Positions 4,708 to 53,262 of a DNA stretch of 60,785 bases are shown one piece after another. Numbering within the stretch: the stretch's first letter is position 1; each line of letters begins with the position of its first letter. The DNA comes from a virus (taxonomy: Duplodnaviria; Caudoviricetes): positions 1 to 60,785 of IMG/VR virus record IMGVR_UViG_3300046725_000023. One strand, written 5' to 3'. The notes under the pieces were generated by a model, which saw only the letters and a program-made list of their open reading frames with translations, was not told where the DNA came from and made no database searches. Both the position numbers and the translations under genes were made by a program.

Positions 4708-6539
4708 TGGCCGGACCGGAGCGCGTCCAGCATCTCGGACCGCTTGTCCTTCCGGGTGCCCAGCACGATCTCGCGCGCCCGCGCAAGCTGGCGGAGCTGG
4801 ACCGTGTTCAGGTCCTCGATCTTGGTACCGGCCGCGATGCCCTCGACCTCCCCGGCCTGGACCCGCTCGCGGCCCGTCAGCGCGGCGGCCGACTCACGCA
4901 GCGCGGCCACGCCCTCCGGGTCCACCCGCTCCCACTCAGCAGCCAGCGCGTCCGTTGACAGTGCATCGTCATCCCCCGGCGCCAGCTCCACATCCACCAG
5001 GAACGGCGGCTCCGGGGAGGTGGCCATGGGCACGAAGTTCCGGACCGGAGAGGTCGAGACGCCCTCGGCCGTGATGGCCCGGACGCGCTCCGGCGGCGCG
5101 GCGATCTCGGTCACGGCCAGCCGGTCGTGGAAGATCTGAATCGGCGCCAGGAACCCCTCGGCCACCAGTTCGTCCACGGCCTCGCCCACGCCGGGCCAGT
5201 CCGGGTGACCGTAGTCGTCCACCGCGATGCGGGCGCCCGGTGCCAGGTACGGCGCCCACTCCACGATGTCCCGCTTCGCGCCGTCCTTCGTGTGGTCGCC
5301 GTCCACGAACAGCAGGCCCACGGGCTTACCGTCGTACGCGGCGGCCACCTCATGCGAGAACGCGTGCACGAGCGTGATGTCCTTCGCGTAGCCCAGGGCG
5401 ACCACGTGATGGAAGGCCCAGCGCCGGGACGCCTCGTCCGTGAACGGCGGATCGTAGACGTTGCCGGGGAGGTCCCACGGGTCGATGCCGGTCACGTGCG
5501 CGCCGTGGCCCTGCCTCGCTCCCCACGCCATCTGGAGGGCGGTCCGGCCGTGGAACACGCCCAGCTCCACGATCTCCTGATCCGCCGGGACGGCCGCCGC
5601 GAAGTCGGCCAGCGCCATCATGATGTCGTCCGGCGTCGCCGCCTGGACCCGCTTAAAGAACCTCGGGGGCTTCATACCCAATCCTCCTCGAATGCCCAGC
5701 CGGGTGGACCGGCCGGATCTCGCAACGGCGGGCCGCGCCGGGCGGCCGGACTTCGGTTCGGCGGCCGGGCGGATCTCGGGCATCCCCGGCCGCAGCTCTC
5801 GCACGGCGGCGATCTGCATCCCCAGGGTCTGCCCTTCCCTCCAGACCATGTACGCGGTCCGGTCCTTGCTGAACTGGTCGCGGTGGTTCACCCGCTGGTA
5901 CTGCTCGTCCGTCTTGGCCTTGCCCGCTACCGGGTGCATGTGCTCGATCCGGATCTCCGGCAGGTGCTTCATCGCACCGGCGCCGCCGTACAGGTCCATC
6001 ATCGAGTTGTCGCAGTACATGTGTTCGACCGGCGCCGGGACCATCCGGCCGAGCGCGCGGACCGCGTCCGCCGTGACAGCCCACTCGGTGCTCAGCTTGC
6101 GGCCCTGGTACCCGTCGTCCCCGTAGACCATGCCGGTGCCCAACTCGGCCAGCTCGGCGAGGTAGACCCTGGCCCAGCCGATCGTCTGGGGGAGGTGGTC
6201 GTCCCCGGCGAACGCCAGCGCGCGGTACGCCTTGACGTCCGCGAACAGCTTGGCCACCAGGTTGAGCTTGTGGACCATCGGCATCCACTCGTCCATCTCG
6301 ACCAGCTTGACCGCGCTGGTCCCCTCGGGCGCCTCCGCCGTGAACGACTCGACCACGCGCCGGTACCCGCCGATCTCCGGGTCGTCGGAGTCCGCGATGA
6401 GGATCAGGTCCGCGTGGTCCCACGCGTTCGTGAAGTCCCAGGCGCTGATGACCTTCTCGATGTTGCCGGGTCGGCCGCGCGTCGGGACCAGCACGCCCAG
6501 GCTGGACCGGCGGCCGGGCTCGGGCAGGGCGTCAGTCAT
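4704..6539 (-). CDS. GT2-like glycosyltransferase fused to class I SAM methyltransferase (Methyltransf_24-like) and a Rho-N/HeH-like tail
   Basis: VLVPTRGRP...FAGDDH; VELGVFHGRT, LLFVDGDH, IAVDDY; C-terminal DLNTVQLRQLARAREI...KRSEMLDAL. Confidence 0.8.
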   Translation of the reverse strand: MTDALPEPGRRSSLGVLVPTRGRPGNIEKVISAWDFTNAWDHADLILIADSDDPEIGGYRRVVESFTAEAPEGTSAVKLVEMDEWMPMVHKLNLVAKLFADVKAYRALAFAGDDHLPQTIGWARVYLAELAELGTGMVYGDDGYQGRKLSTEWAVTADAVRALGRMVPAPVEHMYCDNSMMDLYGGAGAMKHLPEIRIEHMHPVAGKAKTDEQYQRVNHRDQFSKDRTAYMVWREGQTLGMQIAAVRELRPGMPEIRPAAEPKSGRPARPAVARSGRSTRLGIRGGLGMKPPRFFKRVQAATPDDIMMALADFAAAVPADQEIVELGVFHGRTALQMAWGARQGHGAHVTGIDPWDLPGNVYDPPFTDEASRRWAFHHVVALGYAKDITLVHAFSHEVAAAYDGKPVGLLFVDGDHTKDGAKRDIVEWAPYLAPGARIAVDDYGHPDWPGVGEAVDELVAEGFLAPIQIFHDRLAVTEIAAPPERVRAITAEGVSTSPVRNFVPMATSPEPPFLVDVELAPGDDDALSTDALAAEWERVDPEGVAALRESAAALTGRERVQAGEVEGIAAGTKIEDLNTVQLRQLARAREIVLGTRKDKRSEMLDALRSGQ

Positions 6540-7200
6540 CGTGGCTCCAGGTCAGATACGGGGAGGCGACGGTCGAGCGGTCGCCCGGCCGGATGGCGGC
6601 CGGGTTGCGCCAGCGTGAGCCGGTCTCGCCGTCCGGTGTCGTGTGGAGGTAGTGGTACAGGATCCGGGGGATGACCACCTGGCTGCGCAGCACGCGAGAC
6701 CGGCGGAGCTGCTCGGCCCAGGCCCGATCTTCAGCGCCGCCAGCGCGCGACTGTGCGAAGTCGGCACGGCGCGCGAGCACCGTGCGGATCGGGTTGATGT
6801 GGCTGATGTCGCGCTCGAACCGGCCGGGCAGGTTGCGCCAGCGGCGGAACTCCAGCGAGTGGTAGGCGACCGCGATGGGCTTGCCGTTCGTGTAGCACTG
6901 GAGCTGGAACCCTACGTAGTCCGGCCGGGTCGCCAGGGCGGCCACGATGTCGTCCACGTAGCTCGGCGCCACCAGGTCGTCATCGTCCACGAACGAGAGG
7001 TACTCGCCCTGGCACCGGGTAACCAGCGCCTGGCGGATCCTGGGGAGCGAGGGCGTCCCGTTGTTGTGCCAGGCGACCACCTGGACCGCGCCGCCGTGGC
7101 GCTCGACCTGGGGCAGCAGCCCGGCCATGAGGCGCTCGAACAGCGGGCGCCGCTCGCCCAGGGTCGGAACCAGGATCGACCAAGTAGGCGCGGCTGTCAT
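6532..7200 (-). CDS. GT2 family glycosyltransferase
   Basis: WSILVPTL, YLSFVDDDDLV, AEDRAW; leaderless TACGGT-7nt-ATG. Confidence 0.8.
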   Translation of the reverse strand: MTAAPTWSILVPTLGERRPLFERLMAGLLPQVERHGGAVQVVAWHNNGTPSLPRIRQALVTRCQGEYLSFVDDDDLVAPSYVDDIVAALATRPDYVGFQLQCYTNGKPIAVAYHSLEFRRWRNLPGRFERDISHINPIRTVLARRADFAQSRAGGAEDRAWAEQLRRSRVLRSQVVIPRILYHYLHTTPDGETGSRWRNPAAIRPGDRSTVASPYLTWSHDD

Positions 7201-7248
7201 GTGTCCCACCGTACCAGGATCAGGGGGCATCTCGGCACCCGGTGGAAG

Positions 7249-8389: not shown

Positions 8390-9465
8390 AGCTCCCGTAC
8401 CTGAAGCGTCGTATCCCCGGCCAGGTCGAGCGTGACCGCGTCCACCGCGAGAATCTGCCCGTCGTGGCTGACCACATCCCCGGCGGAGATCGTCGGGTCG
8501 TACGAGCGGACCAGGTTGTATGTGGCGCCAGCGCCCTGTTCCTTGGCCATCACGGCCAGGGCGACGGCCTGAGCCAGCCCGGGGTAGTTCCAGTTCAGCG
8601 CCGCGTTCGTGTAGAACGCCGTGGACCGGCCGTACGGGCTGCCACCCGGGCCGGTGCCCGCGTACGTCGGGCTTGACGGATCACTGTCAACCACGACCGC
8701 GTGGACCGGTGTCGCCCCGTCCGGCGTCTCGCCGCGCGCCACGATCACGTTGGGCGGGCGGGTGTCGAAATCGGCGGACAAGCTGCTGACCATGTCCAGC
8801 GGGTACGCCGCGTTCGGGTCGGTCACGGTGGTGATCATCTGGAGCTGGCCCACCCGGCTGTAAACCAGCGTGCGCCGGTAGCCGATCAGGATGTCCTGGA
8901 GTTCCTTCCACGGGCCGGACCCGGTCTCCAGCCCCAGGATGCGCTTCTCGCCGACCGTCTCCCCCGCCGTCGGGATGTTCGGGTTGGAGCCGGTACGGCT
9001 CAGGATCACAGAGTTGACCATGGCGGCCAGATCGGTGGACGCCGCGATCACCTTGGGCGCCTCGAACTGGTATCGCTCCACCCGGTCCGAGAGGTCCACC
9101 AGCGACACATCGACCACGCGAGTGCCCGCGTCCAGGCGCGTACGCGACGAGGCGATATCGAACACGCCGTACGGCACCGTTGACACTGAACCGTCAAGCA
9201 GCTCCAGGCCCAGCTCCACCGTGACCTGGGTACCGAACGGTGTGAGCAGGTCGCGGGGGGACCTCGGGATCAGGTCCGCACCGGCGAACGACAGGCGCCC
9301 GTCCCACCGGGAGTTACGCCGGGTGTCCTGGGTGAGCGACCCGCTGACCGGCTCCAGCTCCAGGCTCACGCCTCCCCTGGAGACCGTGAACCGCGAGAAC
9401 CGGCGATAGCTGGTCGGCGTGCCGAGAGCCGCCTGGTGGCGGGCCGAGCTGAAACGACTGCTCAC
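8386..9465 (-). CDS. Minor tail protein, baseplate hub-like (DUF5047-like)
   Basis: SGSLTQD...LLTPFGTQVTVELG...VPYGVF; PNVIVARGE; YDPTISAGDVV. Confidence 0.7.
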   Translation of the reverse strand: MSSRFSSARHQAALGTPTSYRRFSRFTVSRGGVSLELEPVSGSLTQDTRRNSRWDGRLSFAGADLIPRSPRDLLTPFGTQVTVELGLELLDGSVSTVPYGVFDIASSRTRLDAGTRVVDVSLVDLSDRVERYQFEAPKVIAASTDLAAMVNSVILSRTGSNPNIPTAGETVGEKRILGLETGSGPWKELQDILIGYRRTLVYSRVGQLQMITTVTDPNAAYPLDMVSSLSADFDTRPPNVIVARGETPDGATPVHAVVVDSDPSSPTYAGTGPGGSPYGRSTAFYTNAALNWNYPGLAQAVALAVMAKEQGAGATYNLVRSYDPTISAGDVVSHDGQILAVDAVTLDLAGDTTLQVREL

Positions 9466-12278
9466 AGGAACTCCCCCGGCTCCACGGTGACCGGCCAGGG
9501 CTGGCGGATCATCTTGACCTGAACGACTTTCACGTCCGGCGCCGGTGCCCGTACGGTCCAGCCCTGGGGAGCGAACCAGCCCGGCGTTCCGGCGACCGGT
9601 GACCAGTAGACCAGGTCATTGCTGAGCATCGTCTCCAGTTGCGCGATGGCGGGCATCCCCTCGACCGCGATGGTCAGCGAGATGTCCTCACCGGCGGTCG
9701 TGACCGAGACCGAGGGCAACCCGCCGTCCAGCGGCACCGTGTCCGAGGTCAGCCGGGGGAACTCATGGTTGTGGTCGGTCGTGACCGCCATCCGGTCCGT
9801 GAAGCTGCTGAGCCGGTCGAGCCCATCGTCGTACTCCAGCGAGGGCACGGTGGCCTCGCTGAACTCCGTGATCTTCAGCTCGGGGATGGTCAGCGGGTCG
9901 GCGTCGATCGTGCCGTCCAGCCGGACGAAATGGACGTCATGGTACGGAGGCAGGTGGCTGGAGCTGCTCGTGTTGCCCGAGCTGCTGGTGGACACACCGG
10001 GGGAGGCGCTGCTCGTGCTGCCGGAGCTGTGCGTGTGCCCGGTCGTCGGGCTGCTCCCGAGGTCGCCGAACGAGGGCGCCTCGAACGATCCCGTGTTGCT
10101 CGTGCTCACGTTGGTGTCGTGGCTGTGAGCGTTGACCGAGTGGTCGTGCGCCGGGGTCGTGTGGCTGTGCGAACTGGAGCCGCCCGTGGAGTTCACGGAG
10201 TCCGAGCCCTTGTCACGGCAGAAGTAATTGCGCATGTCCGGCGTGCCGCTACCGCCGTTGCAGACGGTCAGCAGCGAGGAGATCGAGGCGACCGCGCTCA
10301 GGTGCAACCCGATGATGCGGGTCTGCTTTCCCCCGCCGGTGTTGCGCAGCACGCGCAACCGCCGGTGCGGCGGCTCCAGGTTCACGCTGCTGGTGGATCC
10401 TCCACTGCCTGAGTCCGTGGCGCCTGAGTTGATGCTCACCACGTCCATCGGGTGCGTGTGGCGCGGCAGCCAGCGCGGGGAGCTGGAGCCGTAGCCCGCT
10501 TCCTGGGAGCTGGACGGGTTGCTCTGCCCGGTGCTGCTGATCGAGTGGTCGTGACTGATCCCGGTATGGCTGTGCGAAGCGATCGAGTGCGTGTGGGTTG
10601 CGGCTCCGGACGTCGCGCCACCGTTGCCAGCAGCCGCCGCGCCCTTCAGGAACCGGCCCAGGCTGGTCGCGTCGTCGGTCCAGCCGGACACGGCCTCCGT
10701 GGCCCAGCCGAGCGCGCCCACCGGGTAGCCCGGCTCGGACCCGGCCGACTGAATCCAGATCACCTCGCGGGTGGCGGGCAGGTTGTTCGCCGCCGCCGCA
10801 CTGGGGGAGCTGGAACCGGACGTCATCGCCGCCTTAGAGCCGGTCGAGCTGGGGCGGCTGTGCGTGTGCGGCTGGTCCGCCTGGGGCTGGCTGGCGCCGT
10901 TGAACCGCGCGCTGGTGGTAGAGCTGTTCGAGCTGCCCGTGGAGCCGCCCAGCGAGTGGCTGTGCGCCGCGATGGTGTGCGTGTGGCCGCCGGTCGTGTG
11001 GCTGTGCGTCGTCGCTCCCCCGGTGGCCGTGGGCGCGGCCGTGCCGCTGGAGCCGCGAGGGTAGTAACCGTCCAGCGCCGTGACCCGCGTCCAGCCGGAC
11101 GGGATGCTGGCGGCCGTGCTCGGCCAGCCTAGGATCATGCCGCTCGGGATCGAGTCGGGCAGATCCACCAGGATGCCGATGTACCCGAAGTAACGAACCC
11201 GGTACGTGATGTCACAGGCGGCGCTTGACGTTTCACAGTCACCATCGACCTGGACCGGCTGGGGGTCGAGCTGCGGAATGGCCAGGTCCAGGTACGAACC
11301 GTTCAGCCCGTCCGGCACCACGGCGATGCGCTGGTCCCCGGTGCAATCCTCGCGCCAGACCTCGGCCACCACGTAGTCGTTGTCCCAGGTCTGGCCGCCC
11401 GGGTTGACCCATTCAACCCGGTACCCGCCGAACTCCGGTGTCACGCTGACCAGCGGCGGAGAGGGCGGGGGGACCGTGTTCAGGACGTCGAACGTGATCG
11501 TCTCGGCGTGCTCGAACGGGTCCGCTCCCCGGATGGTCGAACGGACCGAGAACACGGCGTAGTACGAACCGTCCTCCAGGACCACGGTCACCGGGATGGC
11601 CGCCGGTGGCGTGCCGCTCCCCGAGGAACCCATGAGCCCGTGGTCCGTGGAGTCGAATACCTCCACCGACCAGTCCAGCGCGGGCAGCCCGTCGTACGCG
11701 GGAACCCCGAAGAACAGCGTGGGCTGAGTCGTGTCCGTGACGGTGCCGCCGGACTGGTTCACCCCGGCGTTGTCGCGCACCTCGGGGGAGTAGTCCGGCT
11801 CGGCCCGGCAGTCGATATCGACGTAGACCTCGGCCGTGTGGAGCTGCGTACCGTCCGGGTTGACCCTCGGCCAGCCGCCTCCGATGTTGATGTCGTCCAG
11901 CGCGCCCGCCGTGCTCAGGCCGTAGGACGCCAGCGACGTCCAGTCGGTCACCTGCTCGGCGAACGATGACGTGACGTTGACGGTCTTGTACGTGAGGTAA
12001 GGGGTCGATCCCTTCCCCAGGTCGATGTCCTCCAGCATCGTGCCGGAGTCGCACTTCAGCCGGACCCGGCCCCGGATCAGGTGCCGCTGGTACCCGGCGG
12101 ACGGGGTGTGCGTCGCTACCCGCAAGCTCCAGTTGTCGCCGTAGCTGGCCAGGGGGAACGAGATGTACGTGGCGTCCGAGTCGTCCGCCGTGACCGCGTT
12201 CAGCGTGCCGGACGGCACGGTCGTGGCCGAGCCGGTCTCTTGGATCGAGACCGGACGGCGGACGTCGATTATCGCCAC
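9462..12278 (-). CDS. Minor tail protein with collar-like and HxH fibre repeats
   Basis: IPSGW...YYPRG, CNGGSGTPDMRNYF, many HTH/HSH tripeptides; paralogue of 12310-15720. Confidence 0.75.
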   Translation of the reverse strand: MAIIDVRRPVSIQETGSATTVPSGTLNAVTADDSDATYISFPLASYGDNWSLRVATHTPSAGYQRHLIRGRVRLKCDSGTMLEDIDLGKGSTPYLTYKTVNVTSSFAEQVTDWTSLASYGLSTAGALDDINIGGGWPRVNPDGTQLHTAEVYVDIDCRAEPDYSPEVRDNAGVNQSGGTVTDTTQPTLFFGVPAYDGLPALDWSVEVFDSTDHGLMGSSGSGTPPAAIPVTVVLEDGSYYAVFSVRSTIRGADPFEHAETITFDVLNTVPPPSPPLVSVTPEFGGYRVEWVNPGGQTWDNDYVVAEVWREDCTGDQRIAVVPDGLNGSYLDLAIPQLDPQPVQVDGDCETSSAACDITYRVRYFGYIGILVDLPDSIPSGMILGWPSTAASIPSGWTRVTALDGYYPRGSSGTAAPTATGGATTHSHTTGGHTHTIAAHSHSLGGSTGSSNSSTTSARFNGASQPQADQPHTHSRPSSTGSKAAMTSGSSSPSAAAANNLPATREVIWIQSAGSEPGYPVGALGWATEAVSGWTDDATSLGRFLKGAAAAGNGGATSGAATHTHSIASHSHTGISHDHSISSTGQSNPSSSQEAGYGSSSPRWLPRHTHPMDVVSINSGATDSGSGGSTSSVNLEPPHRRLRVLRNTGGGKQTRIIGLHLSAVASISSLLTVCNGGSGTPDMRNYFCRDKGSDSVNSTGGSSSHSHTTPAHDHSVNAHSHDTNVSTSNTGSFEAPSFGDLGSSPTTGHTHSSGSTSSASPGVSTSSSGNTSSSSHLPPYHDVHFVRLDGTIDADPLTIPELKITEFSEATVPSLEYDDGLDRLSSFTDRMAVTTDHNHEFPRLTSDTVPLDGGLPSVSVTTAGEDISLTIAVEGMPAIAQLETMLSNDLVYWSPVAGTPGWFAPQGWTVRAPAPDVKVVQVKMIRQPWPVTVEPGEFL

Positions 12279-12309: not shown

Positions 12310-15300
12310 TCATACTCCCACGTCCGCGAGCTGGGGCGGCGGCTGCGAGCCGGTCCCGATGAACGTGGCGGTCACCCGGCGGATGCGGCCGACCTTGACC
12401 ACCTGGACCGACTCCGTCACCGGAGCCGCCCAGACCTCGGTGGCGTCGCTCGGCGAGATCAGGACCAGCGGCCGGGCGAGCACCTCGCGGAGCTGGGTCA
12501 GATCCTCCTCGCTCTCGACGGCCGCCGTCATCGACATGTCCCGGCCGCCCGGCGAAGCGCTGGTGACGAACCGGCCGCCGTTGATCCCGGTGGCCGCCGT
12601 GAACGGCCGGTCTACCGACCACTCGAACTTGCCCAGGATCGGCGCCCAGAGAGGGCCGTCCGGGCCGAGCGTGCGGATCAGGTGCTGGTCATCGGTCCAG
12701 GTGAAACAGAACGACGTCGGGTCTTCCGGCGGGCCGAACTCCTCCATCAGTTGGATGAACGCCACCTCCTCGTGGGGGAGGTCGGCGTCGGTGCTGGCCG
12801 GAGTGCCGGAGGCGGCGGCCGTGACGATCAGCCCGCTGGCGTCGGTCGCGCCGCCGGTGTGGGTGTGCGTCCCGGTGGACACGCTGACCGTGACCGTCGC
12901 ACTGGTGTTCGCCGTGGCCGCCCCGGCGGAGGCGATCGTCTCGGTATGGGTGTGCGTCGCCGCCGTGTGGGTGTGGGTCGCGTTCGTGTGCGCGTGGGTA
13001 GGGTCGGCGCCGCCCGTGGTGTCGATGCTGGCGGTCGCCGCCCTCGGGTACACGCCGAGCATGTTCGGCGTGCCGTTCGTCCCGTCACAGAGCTGCCAGT
13101 GCGCCGGGATGGTGCTCAGCGCTCCACGCCACGGGCAGATCAGACCCACGGGGAGGTCGGGCACGCCGCTGGTGTTCTGCCGCACCCGGAGGTTCCGGTA
13201 CGGCGGGAGCATCGAGGAACCGGACGCCCCGGTGTCGGCCGCGCCGCCGGACGCCAGGGCGCCCGAGGTGGACGAGACCGAGGTGATGACGTGGCTGTGC
13301 GCGGTCGTCCACAAGACCGCGTTCGGCCCGGCGAACAGAGACAGGTTCGATACCGCGCTGGAGGTCGTCGTGGTGCCGTGGTGGTGCGAGACGCCGGTGT
13401 GCGTGTGCGCGCCCATCGCGTGCACGTGGCTGTCCAGGGCGCTGGCGATCGTCGCTCCCCCGGAGGCGCCGATCACACCCTTCAGGAACCGGTCCGACGC
13501 GTCCGTGTAGGTCACCCATCCTGACGGTGCAATGTCAGGAAAGAAGCTGGCGGCGCCGTTCGGGATCCCGGTGGGTGTCCCGTCCGGCTCGATGAAGATC
13601 ACCTCCAGCCGCTCCACGTCGTTCGAGACCGAGGTGACGGTGGCGGTCGTGCCGCCGCTGTCGAACGTGGCCGTGTCGAAATTGTTCCGGGTGTGCGTGT
13701 GGGTGGTGGCGATGGCGGTCGTGCCCACGGCGCCGTTCGAGCTGGAGACCGCGCCGGACCCGGCCGACGTCGCGCCGGTGTGGCCGTGCCCGTGGGCCGT
13801 GCTGTGCGCGTGCGAGGCCACCGTGTGGCTGTGCGTCGCCGAGCCGCCCGCCGTGCCCGGGGAGGTGACCGCGTCCGGGATGCCCTTCAGGTAGAGCCCG
13901 TCCAGCGCCGAGACCCGGCTCCACCCGGCCGGGATGCTCGCGGCCGTGCTCGGCCACATCACGATCAGGTCCTCGGGGAGGCCGTCCTCGGCCACGTCGG
14001 ACCAGTCCGAGATCCGGAGTTCGCCATCGATCCGGCCGACGGTGCGCGCCCGGTAGTACGAGCAGCACTGAGCCGGGGTGTGCGTGCACGTGACGCCCAC
14101 GCCCGTGCGAGGGATCGTGTAGTCCACCCACTCGGCGCACTCATCGGTCGCCAGCGGCCCGAGGATCGCCAGGGTGGTGACCGAGGTGGGGGAGTAGACG
14201 GCGGCCGACCCGTTGACCGTCCAGGTGTTGCCCTGGGTGTCGTCGAACTCGCGGGTGCCGTCCAGGTGGTTCGTGAAGTCCGGCGACAGAACCGTGGTCG
14301 TACCGTCGCGCACCTCGACCGAGTAGATGTTCCCCTCGAACCGCTCGCTGGCGACGCCCGCCACCAGGACCGCACCGATCGTGTACGGCGCCGAGCTGGC
14401 GAAGATCGAGGTGGCCACCCCGTCGGCGTCCGTGCTGAACGCCACCCACTCGCCCTCGTCGGTCTCGCGGCTCCAGAACGTGATCTCGTCCAGGATCGGA
14501 TCGAACGTCACCCGTAGCCGGACGATGCCGTACGGGTCGATCGGGATCCGGTCGTCCGCGCGCCAGGCGTAGTTCACGATCCCGTTGTCCGACCACCCGA
14601 AGATCGGGCGGCCGATGATCGCCGGGTCGCCATCACCATCGGCATCGAGGTAGAGCCGCCAACCGCGCTGGTTGCTGCCGGTGTCGTAGTGCGCCACCAG
14701 GTTCTGGTTCGCGGCCGGGCGCCAGTCGTCATCGCGCTGTGCCTTGACGATGATCTCCAGGTTGCCGGACACCTGAGCCGGATCCGGGGAGCTGACATAG
14801 GCGCCCGAGGTCCCGGGTGAGATCAGGTACCCGCCCACCGGGCAGTCCACCCGCTGAACCTCGATATAGCCTACGGAGTCGTCCAGGTCGGCCACGTCCG
14901 GCGCGCACGCCTCGACCACGTAGAACGGTGAGTCCGCCTCCGGCGTGACGGTCGGGTTGGCCGGGCGGTCCACCGTGCCCACGGCCACCGTGAAGGCGAG
15001 CGACTCCTGGTCGCTCGGGTACTCCGTGTTCGCGCCGAGCGTGGACCACACGATCATGTTGGCGATATACGACCCGTTGTCCAGCGCGGTGGTCTGGCGG
15101 TTGACCGCCGGGCCGGAGGTGATGCCGGTGTCCCACACGGTCGCCCCGTTGAGGGTCACCCAGTAGCGGTACTGCCTGGCGTTGAGGTCGTCCAGGTCGA
15201 TCGAGGCAGCCCGGATGATCGGCTGTGCCGTGTCGGCCACCAGCACGGTGGAGGCGCCCGAGCCGTCCAGAACCTGGGGCGTCATCGTCGGTGCGTCGCG

Positions 15301-15733: not shown

Positions 15734-18685
15734 TTACTTGACTAGGGCCGCTTGCGCCAGCCGCTCCAGCACGGCCTCCGCAGCCTGGACGCCCGCCTCT
15801 CGGCCTCCGCCGTTGATCACGATCGCACCCGGCGCGATGGTGATGGACGTCTGCCCGCCCATCTGGCTGGCCCCGTCGCCGCCGCGCGCCGCCGGTGCCT
15901 GCCCGGCCGGGGCCATGAACGTCGGGATGTCACCGGCCAGGGCGTTGATCGCCTTCTTGATCACCTTCCGGCGGGAGTCGATGCCGACCTCGTAGCCGCG
16001 CATCGTGTCGATGCCGATGTCCCGGAAGACCGTCGATGGGGAGTTGATGCCCAGGATCTTCTTGGCCCAGCCGGGGATCATCGCGGCCAGACTCTGGACC
16101 GCCGAGCGCACGGCCCCGGCGCCGCGCCGGATACCGGACGCCAGGCCCGAGACGATCGAGGCGCCGATGCTGACCAGCCAGCCGCCAGCTCCGGACAGCG
16201 CGCCGGTCACTAGGCCCTTGATCCCCCGGACGATTGAGATCGCGATATTGATCGCTCCCCGGATGCCGTTGGCCAGACCAGTGATGATGTTGCGGCCCGC
16301 CGAGACCAGCCATCCGGCCGCGCTCGCCATCGCGTTGATCATCGCGCTGTGAATCGAGGACACGGCCGATCGCGCACCGGCGACGCCCCGCGAGATCAGC
16401 GTGGCCGTGAAGCTGGTGGTGATCCGGACGGCGGCCGAGATCATCGAGCCGATGATGCTCAGCGTGGCCGAGATGATCGCCTGGTTGATCCGGAACACCG
16501 CGCTGATCATCGAGGGGATGGCCCGGATGAACGCCTGGTTCAGCGCGAGCATGATCTGGAACCCGGCCTGTGCGAGTTGCGGCGCGTTGGCGATGATCGC
16601 GTCCGTGACGGCCGGGATCACCACGGTTGAAATGACGTTGGCGATGAGCGCGGCGTTGTTCGCCATCCCCGTGATGATGGCTACCAGGACGTCGATACCA
16701 GCCTGGATGAGCTGCGGGTTGTCCTTCAGAATCTGCGTGATCTGGGGGAGCAAGGTGTCCGTGATGAACGTGGTCAACAGCGCCACGTTGTCGGCCCACG
16801 CCTGAACGAGAGACTTAAAGATCTCGATGGCGGCGGCGATGATCTCGGGGTTTTCCTTGAACAGGGTCGTGATGGCCGGGATGATCTGGTTCGTGATGAC
16901 ATCGGTGATAATGCCGATGTTGTCCACCCAGCCCTGCATCACCTGCTTCAGCATCGAGACGCCCTGCTCCAGCAGCTTGGGACCTTGGGTCTCCAGCGTG
17001 TTCAGCAGCGTGGGGATCACTTCGTTCTGGATCTTCTCGGCGATCTTGGGCATGGCCTCGCCGATGCCCTGGACGATCGCCGTGATGATGTTGATTCCGA
17101 GCAGCAGCAGATCAGGGGCCGCATCGAGGAACGCCGAGATGATCTGGGGCACGGCCTTGATCAGCGCGGTGGCGACGTCGGGCAGCGCGGTCAGGATGCC
17201 CGAGACAAGGCCCTTGATCAGCCGGAGCCCGGCGTTGATGATCACCGGGATCAGGCCGATGATCCCCGTGATCAGCGTGGTGGCCAGCTTCACGACCGCC
17301 GGGATCAGCGTGGGGAGCGCGTTCACGATCCCGTCCACCAGGCCGTTCACCAGCAGCCCGGCCGCCTCGACCACCTTGGGAGCGGTCCTGACCAGCGAGT
17401 TCACCAGCGCGGTCACCAGCGAGACCACGCCCGCGATGATCTTGGGGATCAGCGTGGGGAGCGCGTTCGCCAAACCCTCGACCATCCGGATGGCCGCGTC
17501 CTGGACCCGCTCGCGGAACGCGATGATCTTCTCGATGATCGACGGGAGGTTGTTTGCCAGGAATTGCAGACCGTTCTTTACGAAGTCCTGGAAGCTGTCG
17601 ATGGCACTCTGTGCGAACTCTTTGAAGCTCTCTTTCGAGCTGAAGATCTGCTTGATGGCGACATACGTCCGGCCGCTCCAGGCGATGAACTCGCCCAGCT
17701 TGGTGATCACCTTGGACACGCCCGTGAGCAAGTCCTCCAGGAACTCGCCCAGCTCGGGCGACGCGCTGGCGATCTTGTCGAACATCCCCCCGAGCGCGGA
17801 GCCGATCTTCTCCAGCCCGGCGCCGAGCCCGGCCATGACCGGCCCGCTGGACTTCACCAGGTTGACGAACCCGGGCAGCGCGTTGGTCACCAGCTTGCCC
17901 AGGCTCTCGGCGAACGGCACGATGGCCGGTGCCAGCCCGGCGAACGCCTCCCGGAGCTGGGGAGCGATCTGGCCTATCAGGCCCTGGAACACGCCCAGCG
18001 CGTCCACCAGCGGCTGGAGGAGAGGCTTTGCGGCGGCGCCGAACTCGGACTTGACGGAGTCCATCAGCGACTTCGCGGCGGCCTTCAGCTCCGGCTCGTT
18101 CTTCAGCAGCGAGACGCCCAGGCCCAGCGCGCCGAGCGCGCCACCGGCTGCGAGGGCGGCACCGATCAGCGAACCGATGGCGGGCGCGGCCACGGCCGCG
18201 ATACCGGCGGCGATGCCCAGCCCGGCCACGATCAGGGTCGGACCGATCAGCTTGGGCAGTACCTTCAGTCCGGCCTTCAGGCTGTGAGCGAACAGCGTGG
18301 CGGAGTCGGTGCCGGTCCGGCCGAACAGTCCGGCCAGGAACCGGCGGATCGAGCTGTCATCGGTGTTCTTCTTGAACGACTTCCCCAGGGACTTGCCTGC
18401 CTCGCGCCCGGCGGACTCCCCGATCTCGCGCCCGGTGTCGGCGCCCATCTTGGCGAACCGGCCCCGGTCGTCACGGAGTCTGCCGTCCGCTCCCCGAGTG
18501 ACTCCGCCGCCCATCTCGCGCCCGGCGTCCTCACCGGCGCGGCGTGCCGCGTCCTTGTCCACCGGGACCTCTACCGGGTCCAGGTTGATCCGTGACAATG
18601 CACGGTCAAGGTCCCGTTCGGTCTGACGGGCGAAGTTGCGTACGTCCCCCGTGACCTCTACCCGGGCGGAACCGACATCTGTCAC
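15734..18685 (-). CDS. Tape measure protein
   Basis: VGSARVEV N-terminus, GRLRDDRGRF, long amphipathic helical repeats, LGINSPSTVF. Confidence 0.9.
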   Translation of the reverse strand: MTDVGSARVEVTGDVRNFARQTERDLDRALSRINLDPVEVPVDKDAARRAGEDAGREMGGGVTRGADGRLRDDRGRFAKMGADTGREIGESAGREAGKSLGKSFKKNTDDSSIRRFLAGLFGRTGTDSATLFAHSLKAGLKVLPKLIGPTLIVAGLGIAAGIAAVAAPAIGSLIGAALAAGGALGALGLGVSLLKNEPELKAAAKSLMDSVKSEFGAAAKPLLQPLVDALGVFQGLIGQIAPQLREAFAGLAPAIVPFAESLGKLVTNALPGFVNLVKSSGPVMAGLGAGLEKIGSALGGMFDKIASASPELGEFLEDLLTGVSKVITKLGEFIAWSGRTYVAIKQIFSSKESFKEFAQSAIDSFQDFVKNGLQFLANNLPSIIEKIIAFRERVQDAAIRMVEGLANALPTLIPKIIAGVVSLVTALVNSLVRTAPKVVEAAGLLVNGLVDGIVNALPTLIPAVVKLATTLITGIIGLIPVIINAGLRLIKGLVSGILTALPDVATALIKAVPQIISAFLDAAPDLLLLGINIITAIVQGIGEAMPKIAEKIQNEVIPTLLNTLETQGPKLLEQGVSMLKQVMQGWVDNIGIITDVITNQIIPAITTLFKENPEIIAAAIEIFKSLVQAWADNVALLTTFITDTLLPQITQILKDNPQLIQAGIDVLVAIITGMANNAALIANVISTVVIPAVTDAIIANAPQLAQAGFQIMLALNQAFIRAIPSMISAVFRINQAIISATLSIIGSMISAAVRITTSFTATLISRGVAGARSAVSSIHSAMINAMASAAGWLVSAGRNIITGLANGIRGAINIAISIVRGIKGLVTGALSGAGGWLVSIGASIVSGLASGIRRGAGAVRSAVQSLAAMIPGWAKKILGINSPSTVFRDIGIDTMRGYEVGIDSRRKVIKKAINALAGDIPTFMAPAGQAPAARGGDGASQMGGQTSITIAPGAIVINGGGREAGVQAAEAVLERLAQAALVK

Positions 18686-19177: not shown

Positions 19178-19709
19178 GCCGTGGTCCAGCCATCGCCTCG
19201 AACTCGCTGATCACCTTCTCGCGCTGGCGCGGTGAGGGCTTCTTCCCCTTGGTCGTCAGCGACTCGTTGCGGAGCACGGCCTCGAACTTGCGGCGGCCGT
19301 CCTCATCCATCCCCCTGAGCAGCACGAGGTGGATCGCGTCCAGGGCGGCGGCGAGCGGCATCACGTCCCACCGGAACCCCCGTAGCGCCAGCTCACCACC
19401 CACGGCGGCCCAGCTCATCCCGGCCACCACGGCGGTCACGTACGCGACGTGGAACGAGCGGCCCGCCACCTCCTCGATGGCCTCGATCAAGGTGTCGCCG
19501 ACCTCGGCGCTGGTGATCTCGCCGCCTAGGAGGCGTTCGTCCAGGTCGTCAGAACTTGACCCGATCATGTCAAGAATGCGGCCCAGGTCGTCCTCGGCCA
19601 GCACCGGCCACCAGTCGGCGGCCGGGAGGGCCGGGACGTCGTACATCCGGCCGCCCAGCTCGATCTCGATGGACCAGCAGCGCATGGACGCGAGCGGGTC
19701 CACGTCCAC
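19023..19709 (-). CDS. Tail assembly chaperone-like protein (second part)
   Basis: Position before tape measure; IELGGRMYDVP...GELALRGFRWDVMPLAAALD. Confidence 0.55.
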   Translation of the reverse strand: MDVDPLASMRCWSIEIELGGRMYDVPALPAADWWPVLAEDDLGRILDMIGSSSDDLDERLLGGEITSAEVGDTLIEAIEEVAGRSFHVAYVTAVVAGMSWAAVGGELALRGFRWDVMPLAAALDAIHLVLLRGMDEDGRRKFEAVLRNESLTTKGKKPSPRQREKVISEFEAMAGPRPTAGVRASAEPSGSEPPRTQRPLRRPRPPGRSRVPTRPREQPAGSDPPATS

Positions 19710-22613: not shown

Positions 22614-22650
22614 AACAGGCCCGCCGGTGAACATCCCCGGCGGGCCTGTT
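22614..22650 (-). terminator. Hairpin terminator after major tail gene
   Basis: AACAGGCCCGCCGG...CCGGCGGGCCTGTT, abutting palindromic site 22650-22665. Confidence 0.7.
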
Positions 22651-22662
22651 GACGGTGCATTG

Positions 22663-25961: not shown

Positions 25962-26088
25962 GTCGTTTCCTCACGGTCGTCGGAGTGTTACGCGACGCCC
26001 GGCCGGGTCGAATCCTGACACCGGTGTGTCAAGCGCGATCGTATCACCGGGGCGGACAACTGGCGCCGAATGTCCGTCGTCCCCGGTG

Positions 26089-26117
26089 TTGACACCTCAC
26101 AGTCAGGACTGTAACGT
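26089..26117 (+). promoter_or_regulatory. Promoter with palindromic site
   Basis: TTGACA-17bp-TAACGT. Confidence 0.8.
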
Positions 26118-28520: not shown

Positions 28521-28537
28521 CTGTTGACGGTGCAATG

Positions 28538-37656: not shown

Positions 37657-37786
37657 GATCGTGTGCCTTTCTCCAGGTGAGGGGACCTTCTTCCCCGCTC
37701 CCCCCAACGTACCAGGTGTGCCTGTGAAGTTCAACCCGAGAGTGGCGCGGCCCAGCGCGGACCGCGCCACTCGTGACAGTGCATTG

Positions 37787-40093: not shown

Positions 40094-40187
40094 TCCTGAC
40101 ACTTTCGTGTCAACCGCTTGTGACCTTGGAGTCACGACTGTAAGGTAGTACGTAACGGCGCGAGGTACGCGCCGGGAATGGGGAGAC

Positions 40188-42390: not shown

Positions 42391-42403
42391 TGACGGTGCA
42401 CTG

Positions 42404-42616
42404 TCAGTACCGGGTGCGGAGCCGAACCTCGCGCTTCCAGATCTCGTTCGCCTTGGCGCGGGCCGCCTGCTCGGTGGTCCGGTTGGCCAGGTCCACCACC
42501 ATCGTGTTGCGGCTCATCTCGATGACCGTGTAGCCCCGGCGGCCGACCAGCTTCTCCGCCACCGCGATGTCCCCGTGCCGAACGATGATCCGGAAGTCCT
42601 TGGCGTTCGCGATCAT
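42404..42616 (-). CDS. Hypothetical protein (70 aa)
   Basis: Cassette with promoter 42665-42693, AAAGGA RBS and terminator. Confidence 0.75.
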   Translation of the reverse strand: MIANAKDFRIIVRHGDIAVAEKLVGRRGYTVIEMSRNTMVVDLANRTTEQAARAKANEIWKREVRLRTRY

Positions 42617-42664: not shown

Positions 42665-42693
42665 ACATTACAGCCATGACGGTGAAGTGTCAA
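42665..42693 (-). promoter_or_regulatory. Promoter with palindromic site
   Basis: TTGACA-17bp-TAATGT. Confidence 0.8.
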
Positions 42694-46574: not shown

Positions 46575-46850
46575 GGTGTCAGCCTATCCTGGAGTGAGGG
46601 GGCATCTCGACCTGACCGCCATGACAGTGAAGTGTCAACGCACCGTGGCCCGCTCGGGAACGGGGAGGTCAACCGAGCGGGCCACGGGCGGGGCAGCACA
46701 CCACGTCCCAGGCAGGCGCGCCGCGACTGTGATGTTACCTGGTCCTCCGCGTCCGGCGCTGACACCAGCACAGGCCGATCATGCCCAGGCTCGGGGAGTG
46801 TCCGAAGATCCAGTGACCGATCCGGCCGCGCTTGTACCAGGTCCGGCGCA

Positions 46851-48061: not shown

Positions 48062-51000
48062 TCACTTGGTGTAGCACATCCCCCAGGACGTGCCGGTCTT
48101 GCTGACGTCCGCCATGATCGGGACGCCCTTCCAGTCGAACGTGAGTGCCTCGACCACGGCCCGGCCGATCTCCTCGGCCCGCTCGACCGGCGCCGAGAAC
48201 ACGATCTCGTCGTGCACCTGAGCCCGCAGCATCGGCAGGATCTCAGCGGGCAGGCGGAGCAACCCCTCCATCATGATGTCCCGGGCCGCGCCCTGGCCCA
48301 TCAGCGCCGGACCCTGGGTGTGCGCCCGCCGGGGATCGGCGCGCATGAGCCGCCCGAACCCGTTGTCCAGCAGGTCGCCGGACTCCGCGATGGCGCGTAC
48401 CTCGGTCTGCCACTCCACGAGGCGGGGGAACCGCTCGCGCATCGAGGTGTCGAACTGGCGGACCAGCCGGGGCTCGATCTCTTCCATCTGGCTGATGGCC
48501 GCCAGGCCGCGCCCGTAGTTCCAGCCGTGGCCGATGGCCTTGGCCTTCTCCCGGTGCTTCACATCCCCGAACAGCGCGATGGCGATCTCGGCGTGCGGGT
48601 CGTCGTGCTTCAGCATCTCGATGTACGCCTGGTCCTGGCTGAGTCCGGCGACCGCCCGCATGTCGACCTGGCTCAGGTCGGCGGACATGAGTACCTCGCC
48701 CTCGTCGGGCAGGAACACGTCGCGCTCGACGTGACGGCCGCCGCGCTTGCCGAACACGGTCAGCCCCGGGGAGGTGACGGACCAGCGGCCGGTGGCCTGC
48801 TCGAACCCGATCTTGGGGTGGACCCGGCCGTCCGGGCAGAGGTGATCGAGCGCGGTCTGGTAGACCGAGCGGGCGCCCACGATGCGGTAGACGTCCTTCG
48901 CGATGGCGACCACGCCGGGCAGGTGGTGGTACTCGCGGCCCAGGTGGAGCATGTGGTCCGAGCCGACCTGGAACTCTCCGGACTTCTCGGTCCTCCAGAA
49001 CGACGTGGCGCCCTCGCGCCGGAGCGCCTCCTCCAGGGCGGCCTTGCCCGCCTTGGTGGCCAGCGGGCTGGCGTACGCCTTCCCCTTGGCGTCCGTCGTG
49101 GGGATGCCGTAGTTCTCGGCCAGCCGGGCCATGGCGTCCGCCTTGACCTTGCGGACGCCCTCGACCCGTTCGGTCAGCAGCTCCTGATCCACCTTGAAAC
49201 CGTTGTGCCGGATCTGTGCGGCGATGGCGGCCACCCGGTGCTCGCGCACCAGGTAGTCCGGCACGGTGCCGCCCAGCCGCTCCAGCAGCGCGGCGTGCAG
49301 GCGCCGGGACAGCTCGACGTCCTGGCGCATGTAGCCGATGAAGTCGGCCGCGTCGCTGGCCCGCTCCGGGTCCGGGTCGCTGGTGTCGTACGGGATGGCG
49401 TCCCAGCCGCCGTACCTCTTGGCCAGCAGGCCGGACACGTCGGTCAGCTTGTCGCCGAGCCCGTACGCCGGGCCGAGCGTGCCCAGGTCGTACCGGCGCT
49501 GTTGGTCCACGCCCTTGTCCCGGGCCATCGGCGGGTCCACGAACCGCGCCGCCAGCAGCGCATCGAACAGCTTGCCCTCGGCCGCCATCCGGTGGATCTC
49601 CGGCATGGTGATGGTTCCGGCCCGGACCAGCGCGGGGAGGTCGAACGCCATGATGTTGTGGCCGGTGACGGTCGCCGCTCCCCAGAACCGCGAGGTGACG
49701 TTCTCGGCCACCGTGCGGGTGTCCGGGCCGGTGAAGTCCTGGACCGGCTGGTCGTCGGCCGCCGTGGCGCCGATGTGCACGTACTCGGCGCCGGGCACCC
49801 GGTAGAGGTCCGCCGCGTCGCCGGTCTCCAGGTCGAACGTCAGCAGCTCACTTGACGGTGCATTGTCAGACCAGGCCATCCCGTCGCCGCCGTCATCGCC
49901 GGTCGGGTGCTGGATCTTCTCCTGGCGGCCGACCGGCGGCCGGACCTCCTCGTGACCTTCCCCGTCCGTGTCCGACTCGTCGGCGCCGCGCGCCTCGCCG
50001 TGCTCGTTCTCCGGCGCCGGGTCGGGCTGCGGCTCATGCCCGCACACGTTCGGGTGGCAGGCGATCCACCCACTGGCGTCCGCCACGCCACCATGCAGCG
50101 AGCAACCCAGCTTTCCGTCCCAGGCCGGTGACTCCGGCTCGGGCTCGGGCGTCACCGGCGGCGGCTCGGGCGGCTGGGGAGCGGCACCGTCGGCGCCCTC
50201 CTCGAACACGCGCCACACGCTGACGTGGCCGTGAGCGAACCCCTGGCGCTCCACCCAGAGCTTGCCGTACCGGCGACCGCTCAGCCGCGAGTACGCCTCC
50301 CCCAGGGCCTTGCCGTACGCCTTGTCCTCCGGGTCGTCCAGCTTGGGCGGCGCCATGTACCCGGCCACGTTGGCGCGAGCCTTCGCCTTGACGTCGGCGG
50401 TCTTGAACGGGTTGTTGCCGAACGTGCGCCGCAGCCACTCCAGGTGACCGGCCCAGTACTGGGTATCGAAATCGGACTCCGAACGCCACACCTTCAGGTT
50501 GTCCAGGAACCCGGTCATCCCGGCCACCTCCAGGATGCCGCCGGTGATCTTCTCCCAGGTCTCGAACGATCCGAACGACACGCCGCGTTTGGGCCGGGGC
50601 TGGCCCTTGGCGAACCAGGCCCGGACCAAGGTCAGGATGGCGGTCATGATCTCGGCGCGGTTCTTCCGGGTCCACTCCGGCAGTTCCAGGCCGGACTGAC
50701 CGGGGTGACGGAACGAGGAGGACGGCCGGTCCTGCGGGTTGGCGTACTTGGGCCGCAGCGCGATCCGGTAGACCCGGCGCGTGAGGTCCCCCCGGACCTG
50801 GACCTGGTTGCCCAGCGAGATCCACGTGATGACGTTGGGGAAGTTCGCCATGGTCGAGACGCCCAGGATGCGGTCCTGCCAGGTGGCCGCCGTGAGGGCC
50901 TGTGCCAGCGGCGCGCCCTCGACCGTGTGGGCCTCATCGAACACGAAAAACTCGGCGCCGGTGCGGAACGCGGCCGTGATCTGCTTACGGAGTTCGTCGG

Positions 51001-52435: not shown

Positions 52436-52515
52436 AGTTTGGTCTTCCTCTCCAGGTCGATCTACTCCGGGCCGGTTCCCCTCGCGGGGTTCCGGCCCGG
52501 CTCCGTTCTCAGACC

Positions 52516-53262
52516 TTACGCCTGGGTCTCGGACTGGACGGGGGGAGTGGGGGGACCGTACGGGAACGGAGCGCCCACGATGTCACGGACCTTGCGGACC
52601 GAGCTGGCCAGCCGCTCCGGGTTGGTCTCGCCGCCGTCCAGGATGATCCGGATGTCGTTGCCCATCACCACGCCCGCCACCCGGCCGATGGTGCGGCTCA
52701 ACTTCTGGATCTCGTGCTGAGCCTCGTGGAGCGCGGTCTCGGCGGACTCCGTCCGGTGGCCCGCCACGGCGACCTGTGCCAGCGCGGTGGCCTCGTTCTT
52801 CTTGCTGATCTCCAGCAGCCGGTCCCGATCGCGGCGCTGGCTGACCAATGCGGCCAGGTCGTCGGTCGCCTGGTCCAGGGCCTTGTCCCGCTGAGCGACG
52901 AGGGCGCGCGACTCCTCCAGCTCGGTCCGCAGCTTGGCCGCCACCTTCTCGGCGCTCTCGGCCCAGGTCTGGTTCTTGTCGGCGCGCTGCTGCTCGGTCT
53001 TGCGGTCCACGTCGTACAGGTGGACCTGTCGCTCCAGGGTGGCGCGTGCGGCCTCGCGCTGGTCGCGCTCGATAGTCCGGCGAACCAGTTCGCTCTCCAG
53101 CTCGGCGATCCGGCGCTGGAGGGGCTTAGCCACCAGCTCGGCCTCCCCGGCCTGTGCGTCGCCCACCTCGGCGGCCGTGTAGAGCCGCTCTGACATTGCA
53201 TCGTCAAAGGTGACCGTCACGGTCACGCGGTCCGCGTGGACCTCCGCCAACGTCCTCACCAT
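52516..53262 (-). CDS. Coiled-coil protein
   Basis: GGGGAGG RBS, heptad pattern; promoter TTGCCA-17-TAAGGT at 53330-53358. Confidence 0.7.
   Translation of the reverse strand: MVRTLAEVHADRVTVTVTFDDAMSERLYTAAEVGDAQAGEAELVAKPLQRRIAELESELVRRTIERDQREAARATLERQVHLYDVDRKTEQQRADKNQTWAESAEKVAAKLRTELEESRALVAQRDKALDQATDDLAALVSQRRDRDRLLEISKKNEATALAQVAVAGHRTESAETALHEAQHEIQKLSRTIGRVAGVVMGNDIRIILDGGETNPERLASSVRKVRDIVGAPFPYGPPTPPVQSETQA

Follow-up and report, generated by a model that had tools for sequence, protein, structure and literature searches.

The temperate Streptomyces phage phiC31 carries an integrase, and its large repressor gene gives nested products; the repressor binds a 17-bp conserved inverted repeat (CIR) that occurs in many highly conserved copies genome-wide, often near early promoters, and the CIR sites are described as intergenic. 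For the stoperators of Cluster A phages (L5, Bxb1, and their kin), the available descriptions give more than 20 dispersed copies of an asymmetric 13-mer, bound by a monomeric two-domain immunity repressor, oriented with transcription and for the most part found in short gaps between genes; the site is an operator where it overlaps the early lytic promoter and blocks elongation elsewhere, and the phages are temperate (PMC9283540, PMC6550527). Cluster O mycobacteriophages contain 34 copies of the 17-bp palindrome TGTTCGGNNNCCGAACA, about one third of them in genes, and the palindrome is missing from the host genome; the descriptions of these repeats place most sites away from promoters, give neither integrase nor parAB, predict a dimeric DNA-binding protein, list the function as unknown, suspect a lytic lifestyle, and concern five closely related genomes (PMC4351075). 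RacA of Bacillus subtilis is described, in the account cited here, as binding the ram palindrome TGACGCCGGCGTCA through a MerR-like winged-helix domain in 25 dispersed chromosomal regions for a non-transcriptional purpose (PMC4914108), and the small MerR-like repressor described in the lytic phage D29 indicates that such proteins can regulate lytic phages (PMC12266134). Here we analyzed IMG/VR virus record IMGVR_UViG_3300046725_000023 (60,785 bases; this whole stretch is called the window), the genome of a phiAsp2-like actinophage from soil, which carries a family of palindromic sites, TGAC-N8-GTCA, with ten copies embedded inside genes.

The family appears to combine the symmetry of the Cluster O repeats with the promoter linkage of the Cluster A stoperators, and for the selection of gene-internal copies as DNA its sequences offer the clearest comparative evidence so far. 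As in Cluster A, the copies are many and dispersed, 19 of 30 have no promoter, and in 11 putative promoters of the window the site lies over the -35 element and the spacer. Unlike the stoperators, the site is a palindrome of 16–20 bp and one third of the copies are intragenic; its non-promoter copies are symmetric and thus without orientation, and the promoter-type ones are oriented by the -10 element alone. Cluster A phages have an integrase or parABS, whereas no integrase, parABS, L5-type repressor, or prophage was found here among 60 open reading frame (ORF) translations and in GTDB genomes. The family resembles that of Cluster O in having about 30 dyad-symmetric copies, roughly one third of them in coding regions, and in being nearly missing from Actinoplanes genomes (the true host may differ). 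It differs from Cluster O in sequence and spacing, and in that 11 of 30 copies are candidate promoter cores and 19 are not. Conservation says little among the close relatives of Cluster O, whereas here it spans 71–75% identity and comes with a fixed frame and rare codons. The ram sites have the same TGAC...GTCA ends, and the predicted fold of our candidate binding protein weakly matches RacA (E = 0.12, 13% identity). The spacing, however, is 8 rather than 6, the center prefers A/T instead of being GC-rich, and the origin clustering and coiled-coil anchor of RacA contrast with the even dispersal and the 89-aa protein found here. Cluster A stoperators are understood, and the repeats of Cluster O have stayed functionally unexplained since their description in 2015. 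The present system is a route to the function of genome-wide palindromes in seemingly non-lysogenizing phages, and it is tractable, with phiAsp2 cultured on Actinoplanes, a single strong candidate binder, and defined synonymous changes.

The window was one complete virus record (completeness 100% by CheckV) with a GC content of 69.7% and with nearly all genes on the minus strand. Its closest cultured relative was Actinoplanes phage phiAsp2, which is syntenic and has the opposite orientation. The comparison set comprised seven genomes: the window, phiAsp2, and five complete IMG/VR relatives (G001–G005). The relatives were found by a scan with a 17-base motif; the hub protein alone, used as a query against viral contigs, retrieved no relatives. 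Nucleotide identity of the six relatives to the window was 71.0–74.5% across 33–45 kb. Genes were called by a simple rule based on GC at third codon positions (GC3), which is unreliable for G003 (64% GC). The Pfam scan covered 60 ORF translations, corresponding to 59 of the 67 gene calls, and the unscanned ones were not longer than 180 aa. Mapping of sites between genomes by tblastx was used for intragenic copies only, as promoter-type copies match each other and gave noisy results.

Exact copies of TGAC-N8-GTCA numbered 30 in the window against 1.05 expected (standard deviation 0.94, maximum 4 in 100 dinucleotide-preserving shuffles), and the reversed control pattern was not found there. phiAsp2 had 36 copies and G001–G005 had 28, 24, 21, 32, and 16, respectively, with 0–1 control matches in each relative. 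In the window, 11 copies were followed by a -10 element (promoter-type) and 19 were not. The latter comprised ten intragenic copies, six copies at stop codons, and those at 26016, 40097, and 46622; they were more symmetric than the promoter-type copies, with the consensus cTTGACAnTGCAnTGTCAAg and invariant TGAC-N8-GTCA. An earlier note on this DNA, made from its letters, had placed ten palindromes inside coding sequences. All ten proved to be copies of this motif located in real ORFs, with Pfam or phiAsp2 support for these ORFs and with GC3 periodicity continuing uninterrupted on both sides of each site. Thus, 10 of the 30 window copies were clearly intragenic, and to them an eleventh can be added which was absent from the earlier list: the promoter-type copy at 1004 in ORF 160-1647, read in a different frame. 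The note was also right that the ten sites have no obvious -10 box, as none had TAnnnT at 16–18 nt on either strand.

The ten intragenic sites all shared one frame, nnT GAC nnn nnn nnG TCA, in which motif bases 1, 4, 7, 10, 13, and 16 occupy wobble positions and only Asp and Ser are fixed. This single frame is probably due to the placement of six bases on wobble positions and to the TGA stop in the third frame, which is exactly how the gene-end copies are used; use of the second frame would constrain six codons at two bases each. Among 187 copies in the seven genomes, 83 were intergenic, 29 were at stop codons, 55 were in the nnT-GAC frame, and 20 were in the nTG-ACn frame. Thirteen of the last 20 had a -10 element, mostly being promoters inside over-long ORF calls, and for non-promoter intragenic copies the ratio was 53 in the nnT-GAC frame vs. 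7 in the other open frame.

With six motif bases on wobble positions, the sites contain A/T-ending codons, which account for 8.0% of the 17,586 codons of the window. Eight of the ten sites had four A/T-ending codons out of six, one had three, and one had two, which bears out the earlier observation that several sites force codons rare in this genome; only 0.8% of six-codon windows genome-wide had four or more. The ten sites accounted for 11 of the 43 TCA codons of the genome. When synonymous codons were shuffled within genes, keeping both the protein and the codon pool, the mean number of in-frame sites was 0.14 and the maximum was 2 in 2,000 runs, compared with 10 observed.

Rare codons of the window were also retained within the sites. 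Where the amino acid was unchanged in a relative, the same rare codon was used in 91 of 119 cases inside sites vs. 910 of 3,829 elsewhere (Fisher p = 2e-32, not corrected for phylogeny); within the site-bearing genes alone, the retention was 319 of 1,610. Overall synonymous identity (0.787 in sites vs. 0.631 outside) was only weakly informative because codon bias raises the background identity. Synonymous-site conservation across homologues, proposed as a check in the earlier note, was assessed by scanning 13,446 six-codon windows, without preselection of sites, for excess synonymous identity. With windows taken so as not to overlap, six sites held ranks 5, 6, 7, 8, 11, and 18; sites 4956, 8674, 49853, and 53191 were outside the top 30, which fits their weaker positional conservation (Table 1). 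At 19557, the outer TTGAC/GTCAA was retained in all six relatives with variable inner bases and variable amino acids.

Changes at lost sites pointed in the same direction. In G004, the lost site 9181 reads CTG GAC GGC TCG CTG GCG, encoding L-D-G-S-L-A vs. L-D-G-S-V-S in the window, with four of the six residues kept. Site 8674 was lost in G001, G002, and G005, where D-x-D-P-S-S was kept with CCC/CCT and TCC codons; in G001 and G002 the codons were back to G/C endings, and G005 still had two T-ending codons (GAT and CCT). The alignments showed no gaps, indels, or rearrangements next to conserved intragenic sites; these sites therefore arose by substitution and not by insertion. The single frame, the codon shuffle, the retention of rare codons, the positional conservation, the return to G/C endings, and the constraint ranks strongly support that the ten sites are selected at the DNA level, with rare codons as the price, as the earlier note had proposed in speaking of dual-coded DNA; their codon usage is distinct from the background and their positions are conserved in relatives. 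Codon optimization or recoding of such phage genes would destroy functional sites, and clusters of rare codons in high-GC phages could be used to find embedded regulatory DNA.

The genes that carry the sites encode mainly virion and replication functions. ORF 8386-9465, with two sites, is a homologue of the phiAsp2 virion protein pas30. ORF 15734-18685 is a homologue of pas27 in the tape-measure position, and in both phages the site is found 77 nt into this gene; the translation of pas27 was confirmed by N-terminal sequencing according to the phiAsp2 annotation. The likely start of ORF 52516-53271 is the ATG at 53271, and site 53191 is still at about codon 22 with this start. The gene with site 4956 had been called "GT-MTase", and the "GT" part of this name was not seen in ORF 4704-6539; a Glycos_transf_2 match was obtained for the neighboring ORF 6532-7311.

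Promoter-type copies had TAnnnT 17–18 nt after the motif, pointing toward the downstream gene, and 65 of them across the seven genomes gave the consensus gTTGACACTTCACAGTCAnGnCtGTAAnGT. TTGACA, the consensus hexamer of -35 elements, is part of the half-site; the L5 stoperator likewise contains a CTTGACA-like -35 sequence. We read these copies as sigma70-type promoters in which the palindrome makes up the -35 element and the spacer. When promoters were sought without requiring the right half-site, GTCA was still present in 61 of 86, and most of the others were 1–2 bases off. A consensus promoter scan recovered none of these promoters because their -10 element (TAAnGT) is far from TATAAT. Comparison of promoter-type with non-promoter copies genome by genome gave a hint of co-variation in the inner bases, with both classes in G002 moved toward TTAA/GTAA centers.

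In seven copies of the window, the TGA of the motif served as the stop codon of the preceding gene; one of them, at 31702, was promoter-type. In four of the seven, a GC hairpin of 14–16 bp followed 0–5 nt after the site (-36 to -43 kcal/mol per 73-nt stretch). At the capsid gene, the palindrome stands just after an extended -10 that was conserved in all seven genomes, with an exact palindrome there in six. The sequence suggests that this extended -10 is a promoter, probably a late one, which may have its own activator site. Further conserved blocks, GGACAT and TTGnCCG, were present in all seven genomes in the capsid promoter region 26032-26075 (-).

The motif was nearly missing from the bacterial genomes inspected: TTGAC-N8-GTCAA had 1 and 2 copies in two Actinoplanes genomes of 11.3 Mb (1 and 0 for the control), compared with at least 8 in the 61-kb window. 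A host regulon therefore appears unlikely and a phage-encoded factor likely, given that these two genomes may not be those of the true host. Fractions of Watson–Crick pairs at the inner positions 5-12, 6-11, 7-10, and 8-9 were 0.40, 0.32, 0.57, and 0.30 in 122 copies, with 0.44, 0.30, 0.53, and 0.34 expected. This lack of covariation and the presence of the site in non-transcribed promoter DNA favor a symmetric protein that recognizes the site as double-stranded DNA.

The best candidate for the binding protein is encoded at 2002-2268 (Table 1). It was present in all six relatives at 68–82% identity, above every other small non-structural gene, and matched phrog_597, "DNA binding protein" (E = 2.9e-15). 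A protein collection contained 325 homologues, many on contigs of 55–61 kb. In the stretch YLGLKRNTLSSYVARGIGP, 16 of 19 residues were identical in 30 of 30 aligned homologues; the recognition helix was nearly or fully conserved, and the C-terminal RPGQGARTDL was invariant in all 30. The AlphaFold model (predicted local distance difference test score, pLDDT, 74.9) had the order beta-alpha-alpha-beta-beta-alpha, and its best Foldseek matches were the RdfS excisionase, the MerR-type NmlR, Pukovnik Xis, GlnR, RacA, and BldC. RdfS was the only one of these matched in a sequence search (E = 0.015). The promoter of the gene itself (TATAGT) carries no palindrome, and its mRNA may be leaderless. The RPGQGARTDL tail is rich in arginine and glycine and was modelled at pLDDT <50; it might contact the minor groove where the center of the site prefers A/T.

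We consider it about as probable as not (roughly 0.5) that the sites are binding sites for a phage repressor, with the gene-internal copies being roadblocks, attenuators, or auxiliary sites. The binder is predicted to be a phage-encoded protein acting as a symmetric dimer, for which the winged-helix protein at 2002-2268 is the best candidate. At early promoters, it would cover the -35 hexamer and spacer and at the capsid promoter approximately +1 to +17, repressing initiation in both cases; positions over the -35/spacer and over +1 make this a repressor-type geometry. Copies without a -10 are located where genes end, in many cases directly ahead of terminator hairpins. In stretches of long late and replication genes that leave no intergenic room, the copies are inside the genes, where they may serve as stoperator-like roadblocks, as attenuators, or as an auxiliary reservoir that holds the repressor genome-wide. 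The earlier note had offered two roles, elongation blocks and parS/matS-like sites. The promoter positions favor the former, as part of a repressor/roadblock system; for the latter, no ParA or ParB was found in the 60 ORF translations.

Several points weigh against the repressor. The inner bases differ between the classes (ACTTCACA in promoter-type copies vs. AnTGCAnT in non-promoter ones), so the two could be read by different factors. G005 has only 16 exact copies and has lost several conserved sites. The link between the protein and the motif is circumstantial: the Pfam HTH_17 match of the 2002-2268 protein was below the gathering score, and all structural matches of its model had E ≥ 0.013. 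The phage may be lytic, which would remove the lysogenic silencing rationale of Cluster A stoperators. Finally, roadblocks in late genes would need relief for virion production, and no relief mechanism was seen in the window.

The sites could instead organize the genome, with a centromere-like or compacting role comparable to that of RacA ram, parS, or matS; a small winged-helix protein bound to them would compact, anchor, compartmentalize, or partition the replicating phage DNA, and effects on transcription would be secondary. We regard this as unlikely, although the spacing of sites was more even than random in five of the seven genomes (coefficient of variation 0.62–0.73 vs. about 0.95; nominal p 0.003–0.05), and the sites are symmetric and have no orientation. 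The linker of the polymerase (aa 763-859, window numbering) suggests a density requirement, as turnover has left each of the seven genomes with a site there, although its position takes at least five different values. The candidate fold matches the DNA-binding domain of RacA at rank 13, and the ends of its palindrome TGACGCCGGCGTCA in 25 dispersed regions are the same (PMC4914108); the Cluster O authors, in the passage on their palindromes, doubted a transcriptional role (PMC4351075). However, no ParA/ParB, SMC-like, or anchoring partner was found among the 60 ORF translations, which also gave no Pfam match to MatP. The 89-aa protein has no coiled coil of the RacA type, its model having only a short helix (65-74) after the wing; the match to RacA is weak and the spacing is not that of ram. 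In addition, 11 of the 30 copies in promoters and one at the capsid +1 are at positions typical for operators. In a specifically RacA-like form, which we rate as distinctly unlikely, a widespread group of seemingly non-temperate soil actinophages would have the winged-helix protein load on about 30 evenly spaced sites, those placed in structural and replication genes included, and thereby compact, compartmentalize, or time the phage chromosome. New copies of the site arising from replication might then titrate the protein and switch on late genes, and promoters would have formed around this site, which would link transcription to the state of the chromosome.

Other explanations are less probable still. 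Binding of a host transcription factor, or the use of sites as decoys for region 4 of the sigma factor of host RNA polymerase, would agree with the TTGACA hexamer in the half-site on both strands. This is improbable, as the two Actinoplanes genomes (perhaps not of the true host) show no regulon and a lone -35 would not need the degree of conservation seen in the spacing and in the T7/A10 preference of the inner bases. Recognition by a primase-polymerase, nickase, or recombination function, for example for dispersed priming, is quite improbable. The dispersal is even, about every 2 kb, genes for a large primase-polymerase, for a helicase, and for a YqaJ-like exonuclease are present in the genome, and T7 primase sites contain GTC; still, nothing ties these enzymes to a palindrome of 16–18 bp, the integration into promoters is left unexplained, and indels and rearrangements are lacking at the conserved intragenic sites. 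A hairpin in mRNA (stem UUGAC/GUCAA) for processing, stability, or translational pausing would explain the fixed frame, the several copies at 3' ends beside terminator hairpins, and the small stem formed by the motif in predicted structures. We find it very improbable: the inner-pair fractions of 0.30–0.57 are those expected under independence, the motif as the -35/spacer of promoters lies upstream of the transcript start, the stem has just 5–6 A/U-rich pairs in a 70% GC genome, and wobble placement with the TGA stop already accounts for the single frame. The sites do encode Asp-x-x-x-Ser, many are in virion proteins, and the phage carries glycosyl- and methyltransferases, so a peptide (x-D-x-x-x-S as a glycosylation or cleavage signal) could be imagined, as could chance or a mobile-element footprint, with no function of the DNA itself. 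We assign practically no probability to this. The proteome contains 65 x-D-x-x-x-S peptides, and the codon shuffle yields far fewer sites than observed; at lost sites, the codons change and the peptide is largely kept (in full at 8674, four of six residues at 9181). The motif is also abundant outside genes, and gap-free flanks point to substitution. The codon shuffle and the codon changes at lost sites, together with the retention of rare codons and the constraint scan, contradict a peptide motif, chance, or a mobile element as the cause.

Table 1. Copies of TGAC-N8-GTCA and related features in the window (kept, exact motif at the same codons among six relatives; rank, position in the synonymous-constraint scan)
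Feature	Position	Strand	Gene or location	Codons or elements	Remarks
Intragenic site	4956..4971		Methyltransf_24 ORF 4704-6539, aa 523	GAT GAC GAT GCA CTG TCA	no -10; kept 1/6 (phiAsp2); sites of G004 and G002 8–30 codons off
Intragenic site	8674..8689		DUF5047 tail/hub ORF 8386-9465, aa 259	GTT GAC AGT GAT CCG TCA	kept 3/6
Intragenic site	9181..9196		ORF 8386-9465, aa 90	CTT GAC GGT TCA GTG TCA	kept 5/6; rank 6
Intragenic site	11226..11241		large tail ORF 9462-12278, aa 346	GGT GAC TGT GAA ACG TCA	kept 5/6; rank 8
Intragenic site	13522..13537		large tail ORF 12310-15720, aa 728	CCT GAC ATT GCA CCG TCA	kept 4/6, G005 one base off; rank 7
Intragenic site	18593..18608		ORF 15734-18685, codon 26	CTT GAC CGT GCA TTG TCA	kept 4/6; rank 5
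Intragenic site	19557..19572		ORF 19023-19709, aa 46	CTT GAC ATG ATC GGG TCA	kept 6/6; rank 11
Intragenic site	32603..32618		Phage_Mu_F (Pfam) ORF 32240-33064, aa 149	GTT GAC AGG ACA CTG TCA	kept 6/6; rank 18
Intragenic site	49853..49868		primase-polymerase ORF 48062-52435 (DUF3854 + DNA_pol_A), aa 856, interdomain linker	TCT GAC AAT GCA CCG TCA	exact position kept 0/6; one shifted by a codon
Intragenic site	53191..53206		ORF 52516-53271, ~codon 22	TTT GAC GAT GCA ATG TCA	kept 1/4 (alignable homologues)
Stop-codon copy	22650..22665		ORF 22663-23355	TGA	GC hairpin directly after
Stop-codon copy	28525..28540		ORF 28538-30097	TGA	then 16-bp hairpin
Stop-codon copy	37774..37789		ORF 37787-38431	TGA	then 14-bp hairpin
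Stop-codon copy	42391..42406		ORF 42404-42616	TGA	then 14-bp hairpin and U-rich tail
Stop-codon copy	55478..55493		ORF 55491-55793	TGA	perfect palindrome TGACAGTGCACTGTCA; ~20 nt upstream of promoter-type element 55456 (-)
Stop-codon copy	56753..56768		YqaJ-like exonuclease ORF 56766-57944	TGA	upstream of promoter-like element and tRNA gene
Non-promoter palindrome	26016..26031		6 nt after capsid-gene extended -10	TGA TACGAT, 26046-26038 (-)	covers ~+1 to +17
Intergenic copy without -10	40097..40112
Promoter-like	46622..46637	-	upstream of ORF 45882-46574	degenerate -10 (TCAGGT)
Promoter-type	1003..1031	-	inside SprT-like ORF 160-1647	TTGACA, N17, TAAGGT	in frame L-T-L-H-S-Q
Promoter-type	1589..1617	-	upstream of ATG near 1535, SprT-like ORF
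Promoter-type	1653..1681	+	for ORF 1688-1933
Promoter-type	2330..2358	+	for ORF 2407-2640		divergent from helix-turn-helix gene
Promoter-type	2682..2710	+	for ORF 2761-3240
Promoter-type	3289..3317	+
Promoter-type	26089..26117	+	for ORF 26123-26890		divergent from capsid promoter
Promoter-type	28034..28062	+	for ORF 28103-28483
Promoter-type	31701..31730	+	antisense to surrounding structural genes	18-nt spacer, TACGTT
Promoter-type	42665..42693	-	for ORF 42404-42616
Promoter-type	60621..60649	-	for ORF 60095-60600
Candidate binding protein	2002..2268	-	homologue of phiAsp2 Pas39		89-aa Xis/MerR-type winged-helix protein

Around the promoter-type copies at the left end of the window, additional features were observed. 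The copy at 1003-1031 was kept in G001, phiAsp2, and G004. The region of phiAsp2 homologous to ORF 160-1647 has three annotated genes (pas41-43), each preceded by a copy, and the region may give nested or split products. ORF 160-1647 was considered as a phiC31-like repressor and rejected, being SprT/metalloprotease-like. A perfect 18-base palindrome, CTGTGAAGTACTTCACAG, located at 1632-1649 between the divergent promoters 1617 (-) and 1653 (+), is composed of the inner segment of the promoter-type motif; it may represent another class of operator. The 5' leaders just behind three promoter-type copies contained a small hairpin, GGGGGACA(A)GCCCC, at 2371-2384 and 2722-2735 (+) and at 42640-42653 (-); with two mismatches allowed it was not enriched (6 found vs. 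9.3 expected in shuffles).

The 60 ORF translations contained no Pfam match to an integrase, recombinase, or ParA/ParB at E ≤ 0.01, and no classical repressor was found among them. The exact promoter-type 17-mer was present in 89 stretches in IMG/VR. In 185,579 species-representative genomes, it gave 16 single matches, approximately the chance level by a rough estimate, and no prophage-like multi-copy cluster; the phage group may therefore be lytic, or at least seemingly non-temperate. The 14-base words of the motif had no match in the open-access literature, which did not cover the 2004 phiAsp2 genome paper, and 12-base matches were unrelated primers. No RNA run was among the sequencing runs listed as containing the phage; the 12 listed were soil, rhizosphere, root, freshwater, and unspecified metagenome runs, apparently of DNA. 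Contigs of four sequencing runs represented strain variants of the phage with about 1,100 differences.

ORF 28538-30097 (-), encoding 519 aa with a "Phage tail repeat like" domain, was without a homologue in all six relatives. This ORF is placed between the plus-strand block and the structural genes, is bounded by a site and a terminator, and is likely a recent insertion. A tRNA gene was detected at 56586-56654 (-) (Rfam RF00005, 46.6 bits), downstream of the promoter-like element that follows site 56753. The third strongest synonymous constraint in the genome was located around AACCCCCCA at 19122-19139 (-), within 19044-19187, near the 3' end of ORF 19023-19709; its position would fit a pair of tail assembly chaperones with a programmed frameshift or an overlapping frame. 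At 55038-55349 (-), within the initial 110 codons of the helicase ORF in its longest form (53361-55373), several windows were among those most constrained at synonymous positions; the start of this ORF was probably called too long, or a gene in another frame overlaps it.

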